This document shows, piece after piece, positions 18,179 through 53,866 of a stretch of 64,000 bases of DNA. The notes beneath the pieces were generated by a model. It was given only the letters and a program-made list of their open reading frames with translations. It did no database searches and had not been told where the DNA came from. The translations under genes were made by a program, and so were the position numbers. The DNA is from a virus. The stretch is taken from positions 21,452 to 85,451 of IMG/VR virus record IMGVR_UViG_3300033978_000477; one strand, given 5' to 3'. Each line of letters begins with the position of its first letter. Position 1 is the first letter of the stretch.

Positions 18179-19605
18179 GCTTCGACGTAGCGGAGCGGCT
18201 TGACGTTGTTGACCATCCAGGCCCCGACTGCGCGCTCTGCGTCGCGACGTTGCTCGGTGCCCTGGGTCTGGATGTACTTGGTCCAGCCCTGGGCGAAGTC
18301 GGCGCGGGACAAGTAGGACTCCTCGCGGCGCTCGTTGAAGAACGCGGTGGTCAGTCCCTCGATGTGGTGGTCGGTGCGGCCGGGGAGCACCGCCGAGAGT
18401 TCGCTGCTGCGGTCAGTCAGCAGCGCGCGCCAGAAGCCGGGGATGGCATCTTCGAGGGGGACACCCGAGGGCACCTCGATTGCCTGCGCGCGCTTGGTGC
18501 CCCAAGCTTTGCAGAGTACCTCGATGGCCGCAGTGGCCGCGTCGACCATGACTGCGACGTCGTCCAGAATCGCGCCGCGGTGGATGCGCGAGGCGCCGAC
18601 GCCGTCAGCGACGTAGGTGGAGGCGTTGAGGCAGCGCAGGAGTTCGATGCCGCCGCCGCCGTCAAGGCGTCCGGTGCCGTTGTCCCGCGAGCGGAAGGAC
18701 GCGAAGCCCTTGAACGCCTCGCCGACCGCTTGCTCTGCCACCGGGGTAGGGGTCCAGACCGAGGCGCGAAGCTCCCAGCCCGTCGTCGTGGGGTCGTACG
18801 CAGTGGCGCCGCGGGCATCGGCCGGCAGGGCGTCTACAAGCCGCGCCAGCGCTTCCGGGGCATCGGCGACACCGTAGGAAGGGGAGACCGCGGCGAAGAT
18901 GTCCTGGAGCCCCTGAGCGGTGCGGGTGCGCAACTTGAAGCGCAGGTCAGGGCGGCGCTTCAGTTCGCGCACCATCACCTCGGCAATCGTCTCCTTGTCG
19001 TGGCGGACAGCCGCCATGTCGCGCTCGTCCTCCGGCTTGGCAAGCTCCTCGCTGACGCGCTCACGTAGACCAAGCAGGAACCCAAGGCAGGGGGACTGAA
19101 GGCGTCCGCAGATGCCGCGGAGCGCGGTCTCGGTCATGCGGAGGCCATTCATTGAAACGATGCCGTTGACGTGAACGCCGCGCGCCATGTCCGCCGCGCT
19201 CGTCTCAACGTCGACCCGCTTCTCAGCGCGAACCATCTCGATGATTTGGTGGGCCGCATCGCGGACCAGGGTCATCGCGTCGTGCTCTGCCTTGCGGGCG
19301 TTCTGAGTCTCGTAACCCTCGACCGCCATCCGGGTGCCAGTGGCGTAGAACTGCTCCGCAGCGTTGACAGCGACGCCGCCAGCGATGAGCGCCGCCTGCT
19401 GTTGCTCGATGCGCTCCTTGGCGGCAACGTCGACCGTCTGCTCCGTCCAGGTGGAGTAGACCGGAGCGTCAACCACCGGAACGATCTGCGGGATACCGCC
19501 GCCTGCCTCGCGAACCATCGCGTCGGCGACGCTCATCGGGTCATCGGCGAGGGCAACGACCTTGGTGATGTCGTTCAGGGTGATGCTGTAGTGGGTCGCG
19601 TTCAT
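18172..19605 (-). CDS. DUF932-family protein
   Basis: AAVSPSY..D..; GFASFRSRDNGTGRLDGGGGIELLRCLNAS..RIHRG fits the DUF932 core. Confidence 0.65.
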   Translation of the reverse strand: MNATHYSITLNDITKVVALADDPMSVADAMVREAGGGIPQIVPVVDAPVYSTWTEQTVDVAAKERIEQQQAALIAGGVAVNAAEQFYATGTRMAVEGYETQNARKAEHDAMTLVRDAAHQIIEMVRAEKRVDVETSAADMARGVHVNGIVSMNGLRMTETALRGICGRLQSPCLGFLLGLRERVSEELAKPEDERDMAAVRHDKETIAEVMVRELKRRPDLRFKLRTRTAQGLQDIFAAVSPSYGVADAPEALARLVDALPADARGATAYDPTTTGWELRASVWTPTPVAEQAVGEAFKGFASFRSRDNGTGRLDGGGGIELLRCLNASTYVADGVGASRIHRGAILDDVAVMVDAATAAIEVLCKAWGTKRAQAIEVPSGVPLEDAIPGFWRALLTDRSSELSAVLPGRTDHHIEGLTTAFFNERREESYLSRADFAQGWTKYIQTQGTEQRRDAERAVGAWMVNNVKPLRYVEAR

Positions 19606-19613
19606 GGGGGAAT

Positions 19614-19679
19614 CTCCTATCCAGTTGTTTGGGTTGTGCGTCGCGTTGCAGCGCGCCGCGGGGTGTCGTTGTTCAGCGC
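19614..19679 (-). promoter_or_regulatory. Repeated intergenic hairpin/RBS element, copy upstream of DUF932 gene
   Basis: GCGCTGA-N7-CACCC-CGCGGCGCG-CTGCAA-CGCGACGC..CTGGATAGGAG. Confidence 0.6.
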
Positions 19680-19828
19680 CAGTACCCGGTGGCCTTCAGC
19701 GCGTCCTCGGCCGCGAAGTATTCGCGCCATGCCTTGTTCTGCGAAGACTTCGAGAGGTTCGCAGACTCGACGCGGCGGACGTTTGCTTGCGCTTTCTCGA
19801 ACCGGCTCTTGATGTCGTCGTTGCTCAT
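19673..19828 (-). CDS. 51-aa hypothetical protein, probably leaderless
   Basis: MSNDDIKSRF...; ATG 6 nt after a -10 box. Confidence 0.55.
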   Translation of the reverse strand: MSNDDIKSRFEKAQANVRRVESANLSKSSQNKAWREYFAAEDALKATGYWR

Positions 19829-19834
19829 GAGATT

Positions 19835-19863
19835 AACATACGCGCGCGGCAATCCGCGCGCAA
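19835..19863 (-). promoter_or_regulatory. Sigma70-type promoter
   Basis: TTGCGC-N17-TATGTT with upstream T-tract (UP-like). Confidence 0.6.
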
Positions 19864-19920
19864 GTGGATAACGCAAAAAAAAGACCAGTGACGGTCTTTT
19901 CTGCGGGAAACGCGATGCTT

Positions 19921-20280
19921 TTAGTTGAGCATGTCGACGGCGTCGACAACCTCGACGCCAGCCGCACGCGCCCTCGCGACCATGTCCGCAGTCCCGCGTC
20001 CACCAGGGAACGCGACTACGAGGTCGGGCTTCTCCCGCTCCAGCATCAGCGCGTTGCGGATGGGTCCTGCTGCCCGACCGTGCGTCTTCCAGTCGGCATG
20101 GTAGGCGACGCATTGGTGTCCGTTCTCCCGCGCCCAGCGGGCCGCCAGCGCGTCAGCGCCAGTGGCTCCGCCGTGGACGATGCGGAGGTCACCGTGGAAC
20201 GCGTGTAGCGTGTTCAGCGTGTCTCTGACGCGGTGCCAGTCTGAGTAGTCGCGTCCGCCGCAAACGAGGATGGTGGTCAC
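19921..20280 (-). CDS. SLOG family protein (YspA-related/DUF2493)
   Basis: ILVCGGRDY, IVHGGATGAD, AAGPIRN, VVAFPGGRGTADMV. Confidence 0.85.
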   Translation of the reverse strand: MTTILVCGGRDYSDWHRVRDTLNTLHAFHGDLRIVHGGATGADALAARWARENGHQCVAYHADWKTHGRAAGPIRNALMLEREKPDLVVAFPGGRGTADMVARARAAGVEVVDAVDMLN

Positions 20281-21026
20281 CGGTTCACGTCCCGTTCCCG
20301 CGCTGCAAGCGCGTCAGTCAACTCGTCCGAATAATACGCGCGCTCCCACGCGCGTCGCCCATGCCCGGTCCCTCGGTCCCCTCCCAGCGACCCAACGCGG
20401 ATGTAGTTCCGGTCGTACATGCCGCCTTGGGTGCATGCGTACGCGGGATGCAACGGCAGCCCATGGGCATGAATGAACGGGAACACGTGAAGCGCCACCT
20501 TCCAGTGCCCGATTGGGGCGCAGGTGTTCTCCGTGGTGAGTCCGTAGTGCGCCGTTCGAAGGCGCCTGACCGCAGACTCTTGGGCGCGCACACCCGAGAT
20601 GTGGCGCTTCCCGAACATGCGCTCGGCTTGCGCGAAACCCTCGGATGACGTGAGCCCCTTCTTCGCGGTACGAGCCTCGACCTCGTGATAGTTGGCGGTC
20701 GGATGCATCGCGAGAAATGCGTCCCGAACCAAGACGCAATCTGGGTTCTCACGATCATCGACGCGCACCCAGACGAGAGGAACATGGATCCCGTGGGTCA
20801 ACGCGATGTGCGCCGTCACCACGGAGTCCTTGCCCCAACTCACCCCGAGGTAACCGCGCCTGCCATCAGGGCCGGCATCAAGGAACGTTCGCATCTCGTG
20901 AGCTGCCTTGCGAGCAAGCACATCAAGAGTCGGCCGCATCCTCTTTGCCTCAAGCGCATCGGTGCGCTCATAGATGGCCCACTGCTCCAAATCGCGTGGC
21001 GTATGGCGCGGACTGGCTATCAGCAC
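20277..21026 (-). CDS. cysH: CysH-like PAPS-reductase-family protein of type IV-B CRISPR loci
   Basis: PP-loop SWGKDS, SGVRAQES..RR, PIGHW..LPLHPAY; directly downstream of csf3. Confidence 0.85.
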   Translation of the reverse strand: MLIASPRHTPRDLEQWAIYERTDALEAKRMRPTLDVLARKAAHEMRTFLDAGPDGRRGYLGVSWGKDSVVTAHIALTHGIHVPLVWVRVDDRENPDCVLVRDAFLAMHPTANYHEVEARTAKKGLTSSEGFAQAERMFGKRHISGVRAQESAVRRLRTAHYGLTTENTCAPIGHWKVALHVFPFIHAHGLPLHPAYACTQGGMYDRNYIRVGSLGGDRGTGHGRRAWERAYYSDELTDALAARERDVNR

Positions 21027-21655
21027 GCAGTGGCCTCCTCACGATGTTTCTGCCAGTACGGAGGCGCCAGAACGCGCCGTTCGATGCGATGCTCTCCCAG
21101 TCCCTCCCAGTCGAGCGGAAGCGGTCTGAGTGGCCGCCCAGCGCGAAGAACGGGGAAGCCCGGCCACGCTTCGATCGGCTCAACCACCCACCGATCCACA
21201 CGGCCGAGACCGACGCCGCGCTTCTTCCCGAGGTGAGTGACGAGCGAGAGGATGTCCGTCACCGCGTCGATGTCCCCGATGGCATAGAACGTCATCAGAT
21301 CGCCATGCAGGTGCAGAGTCTCGGCGGGGATGCGGAAGCCCTTGGACAGGCCGCCCTTTGGGTTGACGCTCATCTTGGTCTTCCCGAGCATCTGCGCCTC
21401 CAGCATCGGGAAGCGCTTGTTGATGAACCGCTTCTCGTGCAGCTCGACACTGAACTGCCCCGTCGACGCGAGGTAGATGCCGCGCTCTCGCGAGATGGGG
21501 ATCTGAATGTCAACGAGAGGACCGAACCCCGGAGGGGGGAGCGCGTCGCGCACGGCAATGGCTGCCATGAGCAACGCGTCCAGTGCAATGCTCGCATGAG
21601 GAAGCATCACGGAACCGCGCAGGTGTGCGCGAGCGACGAAGGGACCCATGGTCAC
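21020..21655 (-). CDS. csf3: Type IV Cas5-like subunit Csf3
   Basis: IALDALL, TFYAIGD, HLGKKRGVGLGRVDRW (G-rich loop), RPLP, PPYW. Confidence 0.8.
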   Translation of the reverse strand: MTMGPFVARAHLRGSVMLPHASIALDALLMAAIAVRDALPPPGFGPLVDIQIPISRERGIYLASTGQFSVELHEKRFINKRFPMLEAQMLGKTKMSVNPKGGLSKGFRIPAETLHLHGDLMTFYAIGDIDAVTDILSLVTHLGKKRGVGLGRVDRWVVEPIEAWPGFPVLRAGRPLRPLPLDWEGLGEHRIERRVLAPPYWQKHREEATAC

Positions 21656-22659
21656 GCGTCCACCTCGGACAGAAACTTGGCGACCTTCTCTTTCCGCTCG
21701 CTCACATGCGAGAAGAAGAGGGAGCCGATCTTCGGCGCCAACGCTCCAACGTCCAGGTTCTCCGGCGCCTCACGAGGGCGACGAACCGCGATCTGCTTTG
21801 CGATGATCGGACGGATGCGCCCGTGCCCGGTCGCGCGTTTCCCCCCGACGCGAGCATCGCGAAGGAAGGCGCCAACCATCGTGTTGAACGTGTCCCGCTC
21901 AAGCTCCGTGTGGACCGTCGCAGTGACCGACCAGTAGAACAGTGCGCCGGAGACAACGGTCTCATGGTTGCGAGGAAGCATCGTGCTCTTGGACGAGTCC
22001 GCAATGACGACGTCGCCGACTTCCTTCCCGTGTTCGGACGCAAGCAGTCGCCGCTCGATGCTCAGCCCTCCGTCCGTCAGAAGCTTGCGCTTCCCAGGGT
22101 CCAGGCTCGGGTCCATGCGAACGCGCATCACCTCTTCGACGTGACCGCGTGCAGATGAGAGTTTGACCCCGTGCTCCTTCAGCCATTCGTTGACCCACTC
22201 CGGCATCCGGTGGGCAGTCTCGTCGCAGATCAAGTCCGCCGCATCCACTTGGACCTTCCCAGGGATCGCGCGGTTCTGGGCGCAGCCTCCGAGGAGTCCT
22301 AGGGGAGGGCAGAGATCGATCATGACAGAGTAGTCCGACAACTTCACGGACCCTTCCTGCGAGCCAGATATCATCCCGCCAGCGAAGAGAAGTCGCAGAG
22401 CGGCCTCGCCAAGCGCGGGGTTTTCCAGCATCCCGGCCGCATCAAGAAGCGCGTAAGCGCCGGCCTCGCGCAGACCGTGGCGCATCGTGTCTCCGGTGAT
22501 GATCGGTACATGTGCAAAGGAGCCATCGGGCAGACGGCGCTTCTCGCGCATCACGAGAGACGTGTTGCCGATGCTCTCCGATGCATGGGCAATTGGCGTA
22601 AGGGCCTCAAGGATGAAATCGTAACGAACCACTTCGTGAACCTTCTTCGTCTCGCTCAT
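21652..22659 (-). CDS. csf2: Type IV Cas7-like backbone subunit Csf2
   Basis: LEALTPIAH, VPIITGDTMRHGLRE, LLFAGG, PPLGLLGG, GKVQV, VGGKRATGHGRI (RAMP G-loop). Confidence 0.85.
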   Translation of the reverse strand: MSETKKVHEVVRYDFILEALTPIAHASESIGNTSLVMREKRRLPDGSFAHVPIITGDTMRHGLREAGAYALLDAAGMLENPALGEAALRLLFAGGMISGSQEGSVKLSDYSVMIDLCPPLGLLGGCAQNRAIPGKVQVDAADLICDETAHRMPEWVNEWLKEHGVKLSSARGHVEEVMRVRMDPSLDPGKRKLLTDGGLSIERRLLASEHGKEVGDVVIADSSKSTMLPRNHETVVSGALFYWSVTATVHTELERDTFNTMVGAFLRDARVGGKRATGHGRIRPIIAKQIAVRRPREAPENLDVGALAPKIGSLFFSHVSERKEKVAKFLSEVDA

Positions 22660-23042
22660 TGTGCCGCTTCCTCTCGTGCTGCCTGGGCAGCTTCCTTGCG
22701 TTGTTCGGCGATGCCACGGGCCATCGCAATCAGGTAGCCAAACTCCCTTTCGATCAAGTCGAGCCATGCGCGGGAGCAGTTGTTCTCTCGGACGAAGTCC
22801 GCGAGATCACGAGAAGAGCGAGAGCTGTCCACTCGCAGCGCCCCCAACTGAAGCGTTCGAACCATCTTGGTCGTCCACTCCTCTACCGATTCGCTCTGCC
22901 GAGATGCCGCCAGCATCCGGCTCTGCAACTGATCCCAGTGCTTCAGGACGTTGCACCCAGGCGTCCCCAGGTACGCGCTCCGAAGCTCCAGCAGAAGCTC
23001 CACTGTCAGCGTCCGCAGACGCTCTTTCTTTTCCTCGTTCAC
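22656..23042 (-). CDS. cas11: Cas11-like small alpha-helical subunit
   Basis: 128-aa helical protein between csf1 and csf2 (the IV-B position); GTG start at 23042; ATGA-coupled to csf2. Confidence 0.65.
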   Translation of the reverse strand: MNEEKKERLRTLTVELLLELRSAYLGTPGCNVLKHWDQLQSRMLAASRQSESVEEWTTKMVRTLQLGALRVDSSRSSRDLADFVRENNCSRAWLDLIEREFGYLIAMARGIAEQRKEAAQAAREEAAQ

Positions 23043-23817
23043 GTTTCGGTCCCTTCTTCTTGGTCGGCCCATCAGCCTTCGATTTCGTCGTCTTCGCCGC
23101 GGCCTTCTTTGCCGCCTTCTCTTGTTTCTCCGCTTCCATCCTTTCGGCCACTGCGGCCTCGTCACGTTGCGCCAGCCAGATGGCCAACTCAAACCACTGC
23201 CCACCACGCCTAAAGCCGTGCTTGGTCTCGAACGCGTGAAGCTTCGCCCCGCACAACTGCCACGCGCGCGAGCCGAGAGCCCCAGACAGAATCTCCTCCT
23301 TCGTTGCGCCCATCGTCAGCAGATCGGCGATGTCGTCCAGCATTGACCAGCCTTCAGCATCGCGAGGCAACTCGACGATGGCCTCCTCGAACAGGACCGC
23401 ACCACCGGCCTGTCCAGGCGCGTTGATGGGGGTCCACGGGATCAGGTGCTTCTTGCCGCTGTCCGCGATGGCGGCGAACCATGGGGCCTCGTGGGTGCGG
23501 CGAATGAAGTCTCGGATGGCTGGCTTCTGCCCCTTGTTCACGCGGACGTGAGAGGAGCCTTCCACCAGGTGCGTCCACATGCGCTCAGTGTCGGGAGGTT
23601 TGCCGGCCATGACGTGGACACATGACTCGCAGACGTAGCCGCTCTCTGCGCAGCGGACGCGGTTCTGGCCTGTAAAGTTTGCGCCGGCCCACTTGTGACG
23701 CTCCACCCCTCGCGTCGCGTCACCGCCGCAAACCCAACAATGGAACGCTTCCATGTCTCGGCACATGGCGTTTGGCTTGAGCCCGAGAATCTTGTGGATG
23801 ATCTGGCTAGGGCTCAC
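22807..23817 (-). CDS. csf1: Type IV Cas8-like large subunit Csf1 with C-terminal tail ending QLSLFS
   Basis: CWVCG..NFT..VCESC zinc motif; PWFAAIADSGKKHLIPWTPIN. Confidence 0.75.
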   Translation of the reverse strand: MSPSQIIHKILGLKPNAMCRDMEAFHCWVCGGDATRGVERHKWAGANFTGQNRVRCAESGYVCESCVHVMAGKPPDTERMWTHLVEGSSHVRVNKGQKPAIRDFIRRTHEAPWFAAIADSGKKHLIPWTPINAPGQAGGAVLFEEAIVELPRDAEGWSMLDDIADLLTMGATKEEILSGALGSRAWQLCGAKLHAFETKHGFRRGGQWFELAIWLAQRDEAAVAERMEAEKQEKAAKKAAAKTTKSKADGPTKKKGPKRERGKERASADADSGASAGASERVPGDAWVQRPEALGSVAEPDAGGISAERIGRGVDDQDGSNASVGGAASGQLSLFS

Positions 23818-24752
23818 GGAACCTCCGAGACACGAATGCGCCCAAAGCCAAACGCGGTGCGCCCTCCAAAGCCGGTACGTGCTGCGACTTCAAGAAGCCA
23901 CCGGGCTGGAGCGTTTGCCTCGACCACGCAATGCCCCTCCCAGCCTGAAACGGTGCCGTACTTGCCGCCGACCTCTACCCTGGCGACCCTCGTATCGACC
24001 TCAGACGCTTCGACGCGGATCAGGTCGTCCGTCTTCAGGTGTTCGAGAGAGAAACGCTGAAGCCAAGCTCCGGCGAGTGTGTTGAGCAGCGCGACTGATG
24101 TTGGCTTCTCGTGGCTCTTGGTGCGCCCATCCGTTGTCATGACGACAGGGGTGATGGTGTCGATACGGACGCGCTTCCTGCCCCTAGCAATGCCGCGCGG
24201 CGCCTTGATTCGGAAGGCCTGTCCAAACTTGAACTTCGATGGATGCCCGTACAGTGGACAGTCGACAGTCTTGCCGGCCAATGAGGCGCCAGCATCGTGC
24301 CACCAGTGGACCGCCCAACCGCTCTGATACGGGAACAGCGTCCACAACGGAAAGCGAGGCATGTGCCCCATGTCGAGGATGTTGGTCAGTGCGCCATGAA
24401 GGCCCCGGGTGTTTCGCAACTCAATGGGCCACTTTGGCGACGGGTAGACACTGAAGGCCATTGATGCGCCCGGCAGGTACGTGTCGAACGGAGGGGCGCC
24501 AGCAAGCCATGGTTTGCGGGTGGAGCAGGCTCGGTTTGCCTCTGCCCACTTGCGGTTCCGCTCCCTGTCCTTCTCGACGTAGGAAGGCGATGCTCTCCGT
24601 GCACGGTCCCGCTCCCGCTCCCGTTCCTTCCTGCACTCTTCAGAGCAGAACTGCGTCATCCAAGGGTTGGCCGTTTGGTACACCGACCGGCAACGTTTGC
24701 ACTCTGCTTCGTACCGCTCACGCTCTGCTGCGTTCATCAACTCACACCTCAC
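23814..24752 (-). CDS. cas6: Cas6-like RAMP endoribonuclease with N-terminal zinc-finger/basic helix
   Basis: LHGAL, IDTITPVV, GWEG..LLEVAARTGFGGRTAFGFGRI (GxGxxxxxGxG); N-terminal CKRC..FCSEEC. Confidence 0.8.
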   Translation of the reverse strand: MRCELMNAAERERYEAECKRCRSVYQTANPWMTQFCSEECRKERERERDRARRASPSYVEKDRERNRKWAEANRACSTRKPWLAGAPPFDTYLPGASMAFSVYPSPKWPIELRNTRGLHGALTNILDMGHMPRFPLWTLFPYQSGWAVHWWHDAGASLAGKTVDCPLYGHPSKFKFGQAFRIKAPRGIARGRKRVRIDTITPVVMTTDGRTKSHEKPTSVALLNTLAGAWLQRFSLEHLKTDDLIRVEASEVDTRVARVEVGGKYGTVSGWEGHCVVEANAPARWLLEVAARTGFGGRTAFGFGRIRVSEVP

Positions 24753-25108
24753 CCATTCCGATGCGACCGCGTCTCGTTGTAGGCGCTCTTGATCAGCACC
24801 GCGCGACCGATGTCGACGCCGTTCTCCTCTGCGGTGTCGAGCGCACGGATGATGATGTCAGCCAGCTCCTCTTCCATGCAGGTGAGGGGCTCAGCCGTCT
24901 TCTTGTCGCACGGCTTGTCCAGCATCCCGCGCCGGTAGGCCTCCCAGAGTTCGGAGACCTCGCCGTGCAGGTTTGCGACCGAGACAGCCATGGGCACCGG
25001 TTCGTCGTGGAAGCCTTTCGACCTGGCGATGCCGTAGACGTGGTTGGCAAGTGAGCGCAGCGAGTCCGCGATGCGCCGGCCTTCGCCGCTGTCTATGTAT
25101 AGAGTCAT
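24749..25108 (-). CDS. MazG-like nucleotide pyrophosphohydrolase
   Basis: ANLHGEVSELWEAYR..EEELADIIIRALD..K.AYN..R. Confidence 0.8.
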   Translation of the reverse strand: MTLYIDSGEGRRIADSLRSLANHVYGIARSKGFHDEPVPMAVSVANLHGEVSELWEAYRRGMLDKPCDKKTAEPLTCMEEELADIIIRALDTAEENGVDIGRAVLIKSAYNETRSHRNG

Positions 25109-25488
25109 CACATCCCCTCCGTCTTCTTCACCGGCCCCGTCTCCACCATCGCCATCAGGTCCGCAGGTAACGTTCGGTACTCCACCGCCGTCCCGCGACT
25201 GTTCGCCGTATCGACCCCGAGCGCCATCCCGCTGCTGATGCCGAAGTCCGTGTAGACCGCCACCAGATCGCACTTGTTGCCCCAGGCAAAGCCCGCGCTG
25301 ATGCCGAGCGTTCGGTGTTCCTTGTTCGTGTCGTCCAGCAGTTGTGTGTAGAGCAAGTGCGAAGCCATCGGGGCTTCATTGCGTCGCTCAATGCTGTCGA
25401 GGCAGCATAGCCGCGCGTAGTTGATGTTCTGCTCGAACGTCCTGCCGTTGGCTGGACTCAGCGGACTCTCAATGACCACTAGCTTCAT
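25108..25488 (-). CDS. Nucleoside-deoxyribosyltransferase-fold-like phage protein
   Basis: VVIESP..NINYAR..APMASHLLYTQLLDD..DLVAVYTDFGISSGM. Confidence 0.55.
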   Translation of the reverse strand: MKLVVIESPLSPANGRTFEQNINYARLCCLDSIERRNEAPMASHLLYTQLLDDTNKEHRTLGISAGFAWGNKCDLVAVYTDFGISSGMALGVDTANSRGTAVEYRTLPADLMAMVETGPVKKTEGM

Positions 25489-25640
25489 GACTTCTTGAAC
25501 TCCTTCTCCTGATGCCGCTTCCTTGCCCCAGCAATGCGGCACTTCTTCGACTTTGCATGACGGTGCAGCGGCCGATGTGTCCCGACCGCATGCACCACCA
25601 ACGCGCCACAATTGGCGCAGCGAGCGACGTAGCCGCTCAC
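25485..25640 (-). CDS. 51-aa zinc-finger protein (MSGYVARCANCGALVV..HAKSKKCRI..)
   Basis: Hand-translated; fills the gap after dnaN and is ATGA-coupled downstream. Confidence 0.5.
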   Translation of the reverse strand: MSGYVARCANCGALVVHAVGTHRPLHRHAKSKKCRIAGARKRHQEKEFKKS

Positions 25641-25644
25641 CAGT

Positions 25645-26772
25645 TCAGATCCTCATCGGCATGACGACGCACAAGAAGTCATCGCCAGACTCCGCCTCGG
25701 GCGCCACCATCAGCGGGTCGAGTTCCCCGTTCAGTTTGAGGACCACCTCCTCGCAGGACAGAACGTTGCAGGCGTCGACGATGTATTTGGCGTTGAATCC
25801 AACGCTGATGTTCGGTCCGGTGTAGCCGATGATCAGTTCGTCCGCCCCATCACCATGCTCCGGGCTCTCCGCCTCGATGCGGAGCGTCCCCTTGGAGAAG
25901 CGGAACTTGACGCCTCCAGTGCGCTCGTTCGATGCAACGGAGATCGCCTTGCAAGCCTCAATGAGCGCGAGCCGGTCGACTTCCGCGATGCTGTCGTTCC
26001 CCTTCGGGATGACCTGCGAGTATGGCGGGAACTTCGCGTCCACCAACTTGATGCTGTAGACCATCCCGGCGAAGTCGAAGAACGCGTTGTTGTCTGCGAT
26101 GGTGACGCGGATGACCGATCCAGCATCCGCTGCGCTGGCCTCGTCACACATGCGACGGATGTCAGTTGCTCCCTTCAGCGGAAGAAGGAACTCAAAAGCG
26201 GTTCCTTCGGAGACGGGGAGGTTCGACAACGTCAGACGATGCCCGTCGGTGGAGACCGTTCGCAGGTTGGTGCCATCAGCCTCGAACTTGATCGCGTTCA
26301 GGTGGGCCCGCGACTCGTCCACGCCAACGCTGGAGATGACTCGACCGATGGCGCGCGACAACGTCACGGCATGGAACTCGCGCGACGCCGTTGTGTTTGC
26401 GCCGGCAGCCTTTGCGACGGGCGGGAAGTCTTCGGCATGGTGGCATGGGAGCCGAAACTTTCGCGCCCCCTTCTCCGCCTTCATCTGGACGGCCTTGTCA
26501 TCACCGATGATGGTGAGGTTGCCCGAAGGCATCGCCTTGACGCGAGCTTCCAGATCCTTCGCGCCGATGGCGATGGCCCCGGACTTCGAGACCTTGGCGT
26601 CCACGGACCCGGTGACGGATCGGTAGAGGTCGGTCGCGGTGAAGTGGACCTGTCCATCTTCGCAACGTAGGAGGATGTTCGCGAGCATCGGCATGGTGCT
26701 CTTGTGGTCTGCGACAGGCGTTGCCCGTCGAAGGATCTTGTCGAGGTCGTTGCGTTGAATCGTCACTTCCAT
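25645..26772 (-). CDS. dnaN: DNA polymerase III beta sliding clamp
   Basis: TMPMLANILL, TATDL, EDFP, VSTDGHRL, FPPYSQVIP, GFNAKYI, VVMPMRI. Confidence 0.95.
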   Translation of the reverse strand: MEVTIQRNDLDKILRRATPVADHKSTMPMLANILLRCEDGQVHFTATDLYRSVTGSVDAKVSKSGAIAIGAKDLEARVKAMPSGNLTIIGDDKAVQMKAEKGARKFRLPCHHAEDFPPVAKAAGANTTASREFHAVTLSRAIGRVISSVGVDESRAHLNAIKFEADGTNLRTVSTDGHRLTLSNLPVSEGTAFEFLLPLKGATDIRRMCDEASAADAGSVIRVTIADNNAFFDFAGMVYSIKLVDAKFPPYSQVIPKGNDSIAEVDRLALIEACKAISVASNERTGGVKFRFSKGTLRIEAESPEHGDGADELIIGYTGPNISVGFNAKYIVDACNVLSCEEVVLKLNGELDPLMVAPEAESGDDFLCVVMPMRI

Positions 26773-26987
26773 TGTCTGTTCTCTCCGTTCGTTCGGGACC
26801 CGCCCGACTCGGTTGATGCAATTCGTTTCTCGATGGCCCGCTGAACAGCCACCACCTTCCACTGAGGGCAGCCGTTGGTGTCCGCGTACTGCCTTGCCCT
26901 GGCAACCAGATCGTCGAAGCTCGCGCTCCCGAGCCAGGCCAGGAACTTGATGTCCGCATCGATCCGGTGATGCTCCCCGCGCCTCAT
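26763..26987 (-). CDS. Hypothetical protein
   Basis: Coupled ORF. Confidence 0.45.
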   Translation of the reverse strand: MRRGEHHRIDADIKFLAWLGSASFDDLVARARQYADTNGCPQWKVVAVQRAIEKRIASTESGGSRTNGENRQWK

Positions 26988-27193
26988 TGCCCGGACACCT
27001 CCCGCCAACCGGCATCGGTCAGCCGGTAGTAGGTCTTTGGCCCATCGGCGAACTGCACCGTCGCAGTCGCGCACAACCCCCTCAGGACGAGCGCGTCAAC
27101 CGCATCGGCCTGGGATGGGGTCTCGGGCATGAAGAGCATGTGGCGGGCCATCTGGCGCAAGCAAGCGGCCTCTGCGTCGATAGCCATCAGCAC
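26984..27193 (-). CDS. Hypothetical protein (winged-helix-like)
   Basis: ALVLRGL..KTYYRLTDAG; RBS GAGGAGG overlapping integrase stop. Confidence 0.5.
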   Translation of the reverse strand: MLMAIDAEAACLRQMARHMLFMPETPSQADAVDALVLRGLCATATVQFADGPKTYYRLTDAGWREVSGQ

Positions 27194-28563
27194 GCCTCCT
27201 CTGCCGCGACATTGGCGCGATGCTCCGTCACCAATGCGTCGACCGCAGCGGCCAGGTCCAAGCCCTTGCGGGTCGCAAACGGGTCCCGCTCAGCAACAGC
27301 CGACAGGTAGGACCCGGATAGGGCCCAGAGCTTGTCCATCGGCGCGAGATCATTCATGACTGCCCCCGTTTGCAAAACCGTCATACGTGGGTTCGAATCC
27401 CATCCACGCCTCTCAATCAATTCAATGGCTTGGCCCGCATCCTCGCTCACTGGCTCGGGCCCTATTCGGACCCTATGTTGCGGGATGGCATTGCTCGGAA
27501 GGTCGACACTGGGCCCCATCGAGAGACCGATGGATCGCGCGTAGCGCTCCGTGACCTTGACCGAAGAGTGACCCAGGAGGTCCTTCACGGCCTCGTAGCT
27601 CCAAGGCTTGCCGTCCCAAGCTCCGGTCAACAGGAGCGTTGCGCATGTGTGGCGGAGATCATGCCAGCGGACGCGGCGAGTGATCCCGGCCTTGGCCTTC
27701 CAGGCTGCCCAGTCAGCGGCGGCGACGATGCGTCCCTTCGGGCGATGCAGTCCGGTGACGCTCGGCAGGACGATGCCTTTGCGCTCGGCCTCTGGCACCG
27801 CCAGGACGGCCTGTAGCGCGATGCCGAACAGGCGAACCTTCCGCACTCGCCCGCTCTTCGTCGAGACGCCTGGGGTGCCATAGCGGAGCACTACGTGGGG
27901 GACCTTGGCGTTGACGTGAACGTCGGACCAAAGAAGCGAACGCTCCTCGCCTTGGCGCATCCCGGTTCCGATGGCCAAGCAGACGGCCAGGTCGTTCCCG
28001 CTCGCAGCGATCAGCGCAAGCGTCTCCGCCATATCGAGGGCGGTGCTCTTCTCGTCCGTGCTGCCATGGTCTTTGACCTTGATGCCAAGCGCGACGTTGG
28101 TTGCGAGCTTGCCGGCCTCGACTCCGTAGGAGAGAACAGCGCGCAAGGTGTTGAGCGCGTTGCGCCGGGTCATCGTCGACAGCCCGCGCGCGGAGATGTC
28201 CGCCAGCCATTCCCGGATCTGTCCAGTCGTCAGATCGCGAGCCGGCATCCGCGATGCCTCCCACGGAAGGACGTAGGCGTTCCAGCAAGACTTGAAGCTC
28301 TTGATCGCCTTGTACCCATCGCGCTCGCGAAGGTCGATGCAGGACTCGCCAAGGCGCTTCAGGCTGATACCGCCTCGCGTGCACTCGCTCTCTGCTAGCA
28401 CCGCTAGGATGCCATCGAGAGCCATCTCCGCCTCTTCGTAGGTCGCAAACGGGGAGCCTTCGATCTCTTCCCTTCGTCCAATGGTGAACGGGAAGCGCGC
28501 GCGGTACCGTCCGTCTGCGATCTTGGTGATGGTGCCAGAGCCCTTAGGCCTTCGCTTCGTCAT
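27187..28563 (-). CDS. int: Tyrosine recombinase/integrase with attP inside its 3' region
   Basis: GTGMRQGE, HDLRHT, LLGHSSVKVTERY; C-terminal RRGWDSNPRMTVLQT is antisense tRNA. Confidence 0.92.
   Translation of the reverse strand: MTKRRPKGSGTITKIADGRYRARFPFTIGRREEIEGSPFATYEEAEMALDGILAVLAESECTRGGISLKRLGESCIDLRERDGYKAIKSFKSCWNAYVLPWEASRMPARDLTTGQIREWLADISARGLSTMTRRNALNTLRAVLSYGVEAGKLATNVALGIKVKDHGSTDEKSTALDMAETLALIAASGNDLAVCLAIGTGMRQGEERSLLWSDVHVNAKVPHVVLRYGTPGVSTKSGRVRKVRLFGIALQAVLAVPEAERKGIVLPSVTGLHRPKGRIVAAADWAAWKAKAGITRRVRWHDLRHTCATLLLTGAWDGKPWSYEAVKDLLGHSSVKVTERYARSIGLSMGPSVDLPSNAIPQHRVRIGPEPVSEDAGQAIELIERRGWDSNPRMTVLQTGAVMNDLAPMDKLWALSGSYLSAVAERDPFATRKGLDLAAAVDALVTEHRANVAAEEAC
27368..27411 (+). 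mobile_element. attP core: 3' portion of tRNA-Cys(GCA)
   Basis: GT-TTGCAAA-ACCGT..GTGGG-TTCGAAT-CCCAT-CCACGCC-T (U73 discriminator); the 5' half does not pair; IHF-like ATTCAATGGCTTG just downstream. Confidence 0.8.
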
Positions 28564-28787
28564 ACGCCGCCTCGCTTCTTTATCATCCGCCTTGCCCGTG
28601 ACGTGTACAGGTCATCGGTGACTGGAGACAAGGGCTGCGGGAACGGCCTCGCACGAAGTGCCCGAGGGCGACTCTTTGGAGCAAGCGGAGCCGGGTCATT
28701 GGCGGGCTCGGTTGCCTCCAGTTCTTCGGCGATGTCGGTGAGTACATCAGCCAGTGCGCGGTAGAGGTTGGCTAGCTTGGCGCTCAT
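28560..28787 (-). CDS. Small protein immediately upstream of int (possible recombination directionality factor)
   Basis: Position and ATGA coupling; basic C-terminus. Confidence 0.4.
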   Translation of the reverse strand: MSAKLANLYRALADVLTDIAEELEATEPANDPAPLAPKSRPRALRARPFPQPLSPVTDDLYTSRARRMIKKRGGV

Positions 28788-29017
28788 TGCGAAACCTTGG
28801 TGAGGGTCTTCGGGATGCGCCGCGCCGTCAGCTTTACCCCGATGCCGCGCAGTGCGTCCAGGAACCGCGATGCGACTTCGACGGAAACGCGCTGGCTACC
28901 ATGGCAGAGGTTGCAGTGACGGGCATTGTGCTTGGCAGCCTTGCGCCTCGCGACTTCGGTGCCGTGCATCGGGTTGCAGGATGGGCATCGGGTAGGGACC
29001 TGATCATCGTCGCTCAT
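28784..29017 (-). CDS. Zinc-finger protein
   Basis: CPSC..CNLCHGS; RBS GAGGAG. Confidence 0.55.
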   Translation of the reverse strand: MSDDDQVPTRCPSCNPMHGTEVARRKAAKHNARHCNLCHGSQRVSVEVASRFLDALRGIGVKLTARRIPKTLTKVSQ

Positions 29018-53211: not shown

Positions 53212-53431
53212 ACAGGCGACGAATCCTCCCGGAAGCGGCCTACGACTTCTGGGCTGAAGATGGGTACGACGGCGAGAAAGGCCCAGTTCGTGACTCGCTC
53301 GCCCATGCGAGGAGCGATGCGAAGGTCTGGCGCGCGGACTCCGTCAAATGGAAACGCTGCCGCATCAAAGTCTGGTGGCGTGTCAACGAGCGGAAGGTGC
53401 TGGCGCTTTTGAACCACACGGACCGAGCCTG

Positions 53432-53866
53432 ATGCCCATCCGCAAATCCCAACGCCACCTGTACCCGAAGGACTGGCCGGCAATCCGCGAGCGCATCCTT
53501 CTCCGCGCTGGCAATGCCTGCGAGCAATGCCGCGTTCCCAACCACGCCATCATCTGTCGAGGCGAGGGAAGCGACGCAGGCACGTACATGATGGAAGACG
53601 GTGAGGTTCGCGACGAAGAGACCGGCGAATACCAGTACTACGCGCGAGGGTCAGAGTACGAGGGGAGGGTCATCGCCGTCGTTCTGACGTGTGCCCACTT
53701 CGACCATGACCCCACCAACAACCATGATGGCAACCTGCGGGCTTGGTGCCAGTTGCACCACCTGAGGCACGACAAGGAACAACACGCACGCAACGCCGCT
53801 GCAACGCGAGCGCGAAAACGAGACGAAGAGACGGGGCAACAGACGATGTTTGGAGACGACCAATGA
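53432..53866 (+). CDS. HNH endonuclease-like protein
   Basis: YPKDWPAIR..CEQC..LTCAHFDHDPTNN..NLRAWCQLHHLRHD; ends QQTMF. Confidence 0.8.
   Translation: MPIRKSQRHLYPKDWPAIRERILLRAGNACEQCRVPNHAIICRGEGSDAGTYMMEDGEVRDEETGEYQYYARGSEYEGRVIAVVLTCAHFDHDPTNNHDGNLRAWCQLHHLRHDKEQHARNAAATRARKRDEETGQQTMFGDDQ

Follow-up and report, generated by a model that had tools for sequence, protein, structure and literature searches.

The csf1–cas11 overlap in a phage-borne Csf operon

The window analysed here is a stretch of 64,000 nucleotides (nt), positions 21,452 to 85,451 of the IMG/VR virus record IMGVR_UViG_3300033978_000477, an 85,451-base record rated complete by CheckV; its GC content is 62.6 %. The minus strand of the window carries a tight gene run comprising an integrase gene, dnaN, a gene for a DUF7768 protein, a small open reading frame (ORF), a Cas6-like gene, csf1, cas11, csf2, csf3, a cysH-like gene and a YspA/SLOG gene. 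This run is a phage-borne type IV-B-like CRISPR-Cas operon with an extra Cas6-like gene. Our subject is the 3' end of csf1, which overlaps cas11 in another reading frame and encodes a tail ending in QLSLF, a pentapeptide resembling the motif with which proteins bind the beta sliding clamp, DnaN. The features concerned are given below, with predicted local distance difference test (pLDDT) scores for the modelled parts.

22807..23817, minus strand: csf1 (large subunit), 336 amino acids (aa) including the tail; TIGR03114 cas8u_csf1 matches the N-terminal 132 aa (E 6.4e-11, 42 bits, cut-off 140)
23068..23817, minus strand: folded core of Csf1, about aa 1–250, with a Cys-rich Zn-ribbon-like N-terminus; pLDDT >90 over most of 1–250
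22810..23067, minus strand: tail of Csf1, about aa 251–336, the end of the last core helix followed by a K/A-rich and G/A/D/E/S-rich linker; from AlphaFold2 pLDDT
22813..22827, minus strand: QLSLF, a pentapeptide like a beta-clamp-binding motif, one residue ahead of the stop; from the ORF translation
22807..23042, minus strand: overlap of 236 nt in which csf1 (frame 0) and cas11 (frame +1) both code; from the ORF list and sequence
22656..23042, minus strand: candidate cas11 (small-subunit gene) with a GTG start, 128 aa; situated between csf1 and csf2, all-helical AlphaFold2 model
23050..23059, minus strand: purine-rich Shine-Dalgarno-like stretch for cas11, inside csf1; read from the sequence

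A preliminary description of this DNA had reported both the overlap and the overprinted G/A/D/E/S tail ending GQLSLFS-stop. The ORF list and the sequence reproduced every coordinate (QLSLF at 22813–22827, the 236-nt overlap at 22807–23042), and the tail is real. The C-terminus of csf1 reads ...VGGAASGQLSLFS-TGA (also written ...GGAASGQLSLFS-TGA), with the Q codon of the motif at 22827–22825 and the F codon at 22815–22813 on the minus strand, and the tail as a whole is rich in G, A, D, E and S. The candidate cas11 starts at GTG 23042, behind the purine-rich Shine-Dalgarno-like GAAGAAGGGA, and runs to 22656, its frame being +1 with respect to that of csf1. Certain type I systems encode cas11 within the 3' region of cas8, in frame and with a separate ribosome-binding site, such that Cas11 is the C-terminus of Cas8. 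The small-subunit start inside the large-subunit gene is alike here, but the frame is +1 and the two products are unrelated in sequence.

AlphaFold2 modelled the last core helix of Csf1 as far as residue 248, with a pLDDT of 59 in the block 251–260 and <50 for residues 262–336. Csf1 is therefore predicted to consist of a folded core and a disordered tail with a terminal peptide, and the motif has the placement expected of clamp-binding-motif clients, in an exposed flexible terminal segment (pLDDT <50) one residue ahead of the stop. Contigs from other lake-water runs aligned over 22600–23166 and 22616–23010 with 0 differences and 0 gaps, some bins being uncovered in some runs, and a 98 %-identical Csf1 protein (P0001, from other contigs) carries the same tail, which together indicate that the csf1 frame is not an assembly slip.

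The strict form QL[SD]LF occurs once among the 457 stop-to-stop six-frame ORFs of at least 80 aa in the window, namely at the Csf1 C-terminus. A relaxed QxxMF lies in the last 10 residues of only one other such ORF (53294–53866, plus strand; ...GQQTMFGDDQ), for which the Pfam search returned no family; its product may be another phage protein that uses the clamp, or the resemblance may be due to chance. Of the alternative-frame open runs in the long ORFs of the window, 11 % reach at least 78 codons. Openness of a second frame is thus unremarkable at this GC content, and the weight of the case rests on conservation.

Conservation of the terminal motif and the frame under selection

A word-indexed search yielded 367 Csf1 homologues with E≤0.001, of which 120 were listed. 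The last 70 residues of each were tallied for the pentapeptide Q..[LMIF][FL] or a hexapeptide form of it. The motif was found in 101 of the 120 listed homologues, against means of 1.6 and 2.5 and maxima of 7 and 11 in two runs with shuffled tails, and in 86 of an additional 140 proteins that each stand for a 50 %-identity cluster (shuffled mean 4.2), with QxxLPG[FLICV] or QxxLW variants in 15 more of these. The preliminary description had named homologues that stop ahead of the overlap, or that lack the motif, as refuting its proposal; the homologues do not stop there and most of them keep the motif, whose frequency is, by these tallies, far above chance level. Amongst the listed homologues the stop codon follows 0–1 residues after the motif in 48 of 91 pentapeptide cases. 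When tail length was counted from the LWLAQ landmark that closes the Csf1 core, tails of at least 60 aa carried the motif or a QxxLW/QxxLPG variant in 106/113 of the listed set and 89/95 of the cluster representatives; to judge from these sequences, the tail almost never occurs without the motif.

Viral contigs queried with the single Csf1 protein gave no relative, whilst an alignment query recovered relatives. In total 65 viral and 19 genome loci were fetched and their genes mapped by jackhmmer on six-frame ORFs. Forty-six loci, which we designated clade A, share 33–57 % identity and the order csf1-cas11-csf2-csf3-cysH. In 45 of these cas11 is read in the +1 frame, with an estimated overlap of 173–371 nt in 39/45 and 44–86 nt in 6/45; the value of 173 nt comes from a 1.7-kb contig (L070) with only a partial cas11 match. 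Most related loci have a GGAG/AAGGAG-like run and an ATG or GTG at the homologous Cas11 start, or one codon earlier, inside csf1. The 44 unique clade A tails comprise 27 with the pentapeptide, three with the hexapeptide, four with QxxLPG[FLIC], three with QxxLW and seven with none of these.

Two further tail endings were observed. A Q-x-x-L-P-G-[FLI]-G/A ending recurs at the place of QLxLF in L006, L019, L073 and L076 and in about 20 database homologues; it resembles the Hda-type hexapeptide QLSLPL and is not a described clamp motif. The Csf1 tails of L005, L069, L030, L033, L034 and L071 run 15–17 residues beyond the motif to a basic patch (...RARARVRK, ...KPKRRR), and such tails (P0005-type homologues) have overlaps of about 275 nt. 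The patch may be a second conserved element, perhaps a DNA-binding one.

Residue Q331 is invariant in an alignment of 34 Csf1 sequences with 34–62 % identity to the query (A1). Amongst 36 motif-anchored rows, position 4 is L in 34 and position 5 is F in 24, with positions 2 and 3 variable, a pattern of conserved positions 1, 4 and 5 that is shared with known clamp-binding motifs.

A wobble test on 36 unique motif-anchored DNA segments addressed which frame is constrained. Within the motif the third positions of csf1, which are the second positions of cas11, vary freely. The L4 codon is CTC in 22 segments, CTG in nine, CTA in three and CTT in two, giving S, C, Y or F in Cas11, and the Q codon is CAG or CAA, which with the following base gives S, K, N or R in Cas11. 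The third (wobble) positions of cas11 at the motif are nearly fixed. Free wobble in csf1 together with near-fixed wobble in cas11 indicates purifying selection in the csf1 frame and relaxation of Cas11 at this place. The Cas11 residues beneath the motif form a Ser-rich stretch at the start of the fourth helix (model residues 72–77), and loci without a tail (e.g. L025 and L028) have a quite different, non-Ser-rich Cas11 sequence there. In one locus (L081) the motif stands about 20 Cas11 residues further upstream. Both frames are open and conserved across divergent relatives, as dual coding would have it, with a conserved Cas11 alignment in one and the motif in the other. Along the overlap selection visibly switches between frames.

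A second group of loci, clade B, has 22–25 % identity and the order csf2-csf3-cysH-csf1, with csf1 last; the jackhmmer mapping detected no Cas11 or Cas6-like gene there. One lineage of this clade has a short Pro-rich linker followed by ...QLSLF-stop or QLLLF-stop (L038, L039, L043, L044, L047 and L051, among the 25 unique C-termini listed). In L039, the one locus inspected, the next ORF begins 7 nt after the csf1 stop, so nothing is overprinted. The clade B case and the shifted register of L081 show the motif to be separable from the overlap.

On a maximum-likelihood tree built quickly from 70 Csf1 cores, 6 changes sufficed to account for the motif; shuffled labels needed a mean of 20.7, and none of 500 shuffles reached so low a number. 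The motif was present in 38 of the 41 clade A rows of the tree, and the three exceptions (L004, L022 and L070) look damaged or fragmentary. In the provirus record L004 early stop codons cut off the tail, relics of which lie beyond them, and the 1.7-kb contig L070 has a garbled tail. In L022 (5860–7077) csf1 and most of cas11 share one frame, the Cas11 N-terminus lies in another and a tail relic ending QGRLEGIG-stop lies in the third. L022 was considered as a natural Csf1–Cas11 fusion and rejected on this three-frame reading, which points instead to a likely indel within the overlap, either an error or the mark of a pseudogene. Fifteen loci lie outside the tree, including the tail-less L025, L027, L028, L029 and L032, in which the csf1 stop falls 44 nt into cas11, so that the tree misses one lineage or more when losses are counted.

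Probable clamp docking and its alternatives

The clamp-binding consensus is QL[S/D]LF or, in a looser form, QxxLF, positions 1, 4 and 5 being the critical ones; the Bacillus subtilis polymerase PolC carries QLSLF at its C-terminus, and Escherichia coli Hda, with QLSLPL, is a tight binder (PMC12309361, available excerpts). A hexapeptide form, QLxLxL, also counts as a clamp-binding motif. The preliminary description had read the terminal QLSLF as the DnaN-binding consensus, and the Csf1 peptide is indeed an exact match to the published form. Motif, conservation pattern and placement all fit this consensus, and our interpretation is accordingly that the tail serves as a leash for docking to the clamp. 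It is probable that the tail is a functional beta-clamp-binding leash by which the Csf complex is anchored to the clamps of replicating DNA, the binding and the action at forks being inferred from sequence.

According to this model, the Csf1 core of about 250 aa would sit in the Csf ribonucleoprotein (RNP), and the disordered tail, some 85 aa long and read in the other frame across the first 236 nt of cas11, would present the C-terminal short linear motif QLSLF. The motif would dock into the hydrophobic cleft of a beta clamp, generally that of the host and possibly also the phage DnaN in this case. The leash could thereby concentrate the Csf complex and the recruited CysH-like enzyme on DNA-loaded clamps, at or behind replication forks, where the docked complex might modify nucleic acid via CasCysH, block replication or scan DNA. 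Nucleic-acid modification by CasCysH has been speculated for type IV-B in general, and the CysH-like partner is predicted to be an ATP alpha-hydrolase or adenylyl-transfer enzyme (PMC8175902).

The clamp gene of the phage itself lies in the same gene run.

25645..26772, minus strand: phage dnaN (beta sliding clamp), 375 aa from ATG 26772; TIGR00663 225 bits (cut-off 137.65) and three Pfam clamp domains

Reported beforehand as lying about 2.8 kb upstream, dnaN (26772–25645) was confirmed at that distance on the same strand as csf1. Its product is full length, matches solved clamps at E 2e-50 and shares with them the segments TDGHRL, KFPxY and VVMPMRI, which we take to line the peptide cleft. 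A correlation between the motif and an own dnaN, also envisaged at the outset, was rejected after 49 of the 65 viral loci had been scanned for co-occurrence: TIGR00663 matched at E≤0.001 in 5/49 related virus records, only one of them above the cut-off, and in 0/10 of the related records that are at least 90 % complete; within 6-kb flanks dnaN was found solely in the nearest relative, L068. On these matches, possession of a dnaN is peculiar to this phage and L068. The general target would be the host clamp; the nearest metagenome-assembled genome is labelled Myxococcales.

Several observations weigh against the leash, the scarcity of dnaN just described among them. The rows of the wobble test were picked for having the motif, so that conservation of Q, L and F in them is partly by construction and the wobble pattern alone is unbiased. 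Elsewhere in the tail, the length of which differs between homologues, the islands EALG and GGV overlie the conserved Cas11 residues KHWDQ and EEW, which suggests that most of the linker hitch-hikes on cas11. Amongst clade A tails, QxxLW in three loci and QxxLPG[FLIC] in four depart from the consensus. Finally, the motif or the whole tail is absent in 7/44 unique clade A tails and in most clade B Csf1, indicating that it is dispensable for the core complex.

Three other explanations were weighed. QLSLF may dock a different partner, such as the CysH-like enzyme, the Cas6-like protein, another Csf subunit or a host hub, its likeness to a clamp motif being coincidental. Short hydrophobic C-terminal motifs are common to many systems, the QxxLPGF and QxxLW variants are not classical clamp-binding motifs, and the clamp-binding reading draws on sequence comparison. 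We nevertheless consider this explanation unlikely: conserved Q1, L4 and F5, variable positions 2 and 3 and a terminal place after a disordered linker are what the clamp consensus describes, and the motif recurs in clade B, where the mapping detected no Cas6-like or Cas11 gene.

Alternatively, the tail could bind the clamp in order to occupy or poison host clamps, in competition with polymerases, Hda or repair proteins, or to favour a replisome built on the phage DnaN, rather than to localize the Csf complex. The presence of a full-length DnaN in the same gene run would suit such a role, as would the lethality of overexpressed phage Mu MuC, a protein with clamp-binding motifs that disturbs host replication control (PMC12867686, available excerpts), and the description of consensus-strength QLSLF as a tight binder in B. 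subtilis (PMC12309361, available excerpts). The motif is, however, always found on the Csf1 of a complete csf1-cas11-csf2-csf3-cysH set, where a free small inhibitor would be cheaper, and most related phages lack a dnaN of their own, such that blocking the sole clamp would harm phage replication too. Poisoning therefore seems improbable to us. That the tail has no function, existing because a second frame happens to be open in GC-rich DNA and owing its apparent conservation to selection on cas11, is already disfavoured and very improbable: the abundance of open alternative-frame runs of at least 78 codons (11 % of runs at 62.6 % GC) and the coincidence of EALG and GGV with conserved tryptophan motifs of Cas11 would suit it, but the wobble pattern indicates selection in the csf1 frame with Cas11 relaxed, clade B has the motif with no overlap at all, the register on Cas11 is shifted in L081, 101/120 homologues carry the motif where about two are expected, and the stop falls within 0–1 residues of it in 48/91 pentapeptide cases.

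A clamp-docking leash bears on the role of type IV-B systems, which are found without an array and without a nuclease, assemble on heterogeneous RNA and are always accompanied by a CysH-like gene. Their function is still called unknown (PMC7937560, PMC8175902), and a conserved docking peptide of consensus strength, in placing the complex on clamp-loaded, replicating DNA, would offer a testable clue to it. As a tentative extension, phage-borne type IV-B systems could be replication-coupled machines, in which a clamp-riding Csf RNP gives the CysH-like partner access to nascent DNA or fork RNA and so marks, modifies or blocks the replicating DNA of phage, host or competitors; we regard this broader proposal as possible rather than likely. 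If true, it would represent a bacterial counterpart of clamp-tethered maintenance enzymes, with tail and small subunit also genetically linked through the overprinting. The locus joins a known CRISPR subtype and a known docking peptide in an overprinted arrangement, and offers a clean natural case of dual coding in which the short linear motif of one gene is carried, in a different frame, by the structural gene next to it.

Full-text searches of the literature on type IV-B, Csf1, CysH and the sliding clamp did not bring up any account of Csf1 with a clamp motif, and the word 'clamp' is absent from the main texts of the type IV-B structure paper (PMC7937560) and the type IV review (PMC8175902). 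One close comparator is the type IV-B system of the Mycobacterium sp. JS623 megaplasmid (PDB 7JHY; PMC7937560, PMC8175902), which has the same genes in the same order, csf1-cas11-csf2-csf3, with a cysH-like gene, the phage cas11 being a candidate, and the phage window likewise has no CRISPR array. The system described here differs in being phage-carried, in its added Cas6-like gene and in the overprinted Csf1 tail with a clamp-like motif, a contrast that rests on published descriptions. A tblastn search of 72,556 annotated plasmid and 50,697 annotated phage records with the Csf1 of the window gave no match. Type IV-A Csf1 (7xg1_A, 8rc3_G) shares the core fold, its solved chains of 240–241 residues comprising the core only with no tail aligned, and type IV-A works with DinG and a CRISPR array (PMC8175902).

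Clamp clients and clamp-using mobile elements provide a second set of comparisons. The PolC pentapeptide is identical to that of Csf1 and is likewise C-terminal in a flexible region, with positions 1, 4 and 5 conserved (PMC12309361, available excerpts). In contrast to PolC and Hda, the carrier here is the large subunit of a CRISPR-Cas complex and not a replication or repair enzyme, and its clamp binding is putative. The RNP of the group II intron RmInt1, with DnaN (PMC6698660), and the transposition proteins Tn7 TnsE and the IS/Tn3 transposases (PMC4678854, PMC3971601, PMC11417375) similarly use the clamp to reach replicating DNA; in the available excerpts of these sources the RmInt1 and transposase motifs are internal and degenerate (QMxxxxLxxLF, QLELARALFL), whereas that of Csf1 is a terminal consensus pentapeptide on a Cas complex. 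Phage Mu MuC, of the Mor/MuC family, is a phage protein with near-consensus clamp-binding motifs that uses the host clamp, but unlike Csf1 it is a transcription activator, with neither an RNA-guided complex nor dual coding in the available excerpts of its description (PMC12867686).

Identity and setting of the Csf genes

The remaining genes of the operon were as follows.

21652..22659, minus strand: csf2 (Cas7); TIGR03115 E 2.8e-8, under the cut-off
21020..21655, minus strand: csf3 (Cas5); TIGR03116 E 5.5e-12, under the cut-off
20277..21026, minus strand: cysH-like accessory gene (PAPS reductase family); PF01507 24.6 bits, cut-off 22.5
23814..24752, minus strand: Cas6-like gene with an N-terminal Cys-rich extension; PF10040 23.7 bits (cut-off 25), PF01881 23.6 (23), TIGR01877 32 bits (58.65)

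The calls of Csf1, Csf2, Csf3, the CysH-like protein and DnaN all hold, with Cas11 as a candidate. The three core genes of type IV-B, csf1, csf2 (Cas7) and csf3 (Cas5), are present, with TIGRFAM matches (E 6e-11, 3e-8 and 6e-12) that are all under the curated cut-offs. The AlphaFold2 model of the Csf1 core has, by Foldseek, type IV-A Csf1 chains as its sole significant PDB matches (7xg1_A, E 3.4e-6; 8rc3_G, E 2.0e-5; probability 1.00), with template-modelling scores normalized to the target of 0.58 and 0.54, respectively, and 14–15 % identity. In alignment A1 residues C27, C63 and C66 are invariant and C30 is nearly so. The cysH-like gene passes the Pfam PAPS-reductase threshold and is also present in most related loci.

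The candidate Cas11, which has the position and size of a small subunit, is modelled as an all-helical bundle (pLDDT 97). A profile of it (A2) has as its top PDB match 7jhy_h, 'Csf4 (Cas11)', a weak one at E 0.061; Foldseek of the model against PDB gave no match at E≤0.001 and phmmer of the protein against PDB nothing meaningful. The start of csf2 is probably ATG 22659, which overlaps the cas11 stop as ATGA (22656–22659). The longest csf2 ORF runs from 22767 and would add 36 residues overlapping cas11.

Type IV-B is characterized by having no array and no Cas6 (PMC8175902). Array-like direct repeats were absent from the window, yet a Cas6-like gene with scores near or below the cut-offs lies upstream. 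This gene, which directly precedes csf1 despite the window having no CRISPR-like repeat array, was detected in 31/46 clade A loci. Given this Cas6-like gene, we filed the operon as a IV-B-like variant.

A transfer RNA scan of the window found none, and a scan of 19000–29000 for promoters and terminators returned counts at shuffle level, which were of no help for operon boundaries. The region 21000–24800, or at least 37 % of its sampled words, was present in 24 lake or freshwater metagenome DNA runs from 2020–2024, with no RNA run listed. The Csf operon (19921–27015) is flanked by genes of nucleotide-metabolism type according to Pfam matches, DUF7768 at 25611–25108 and YspA/SLOG at 20280–19921, which is consistent with a theme of nucleic-acid modification.

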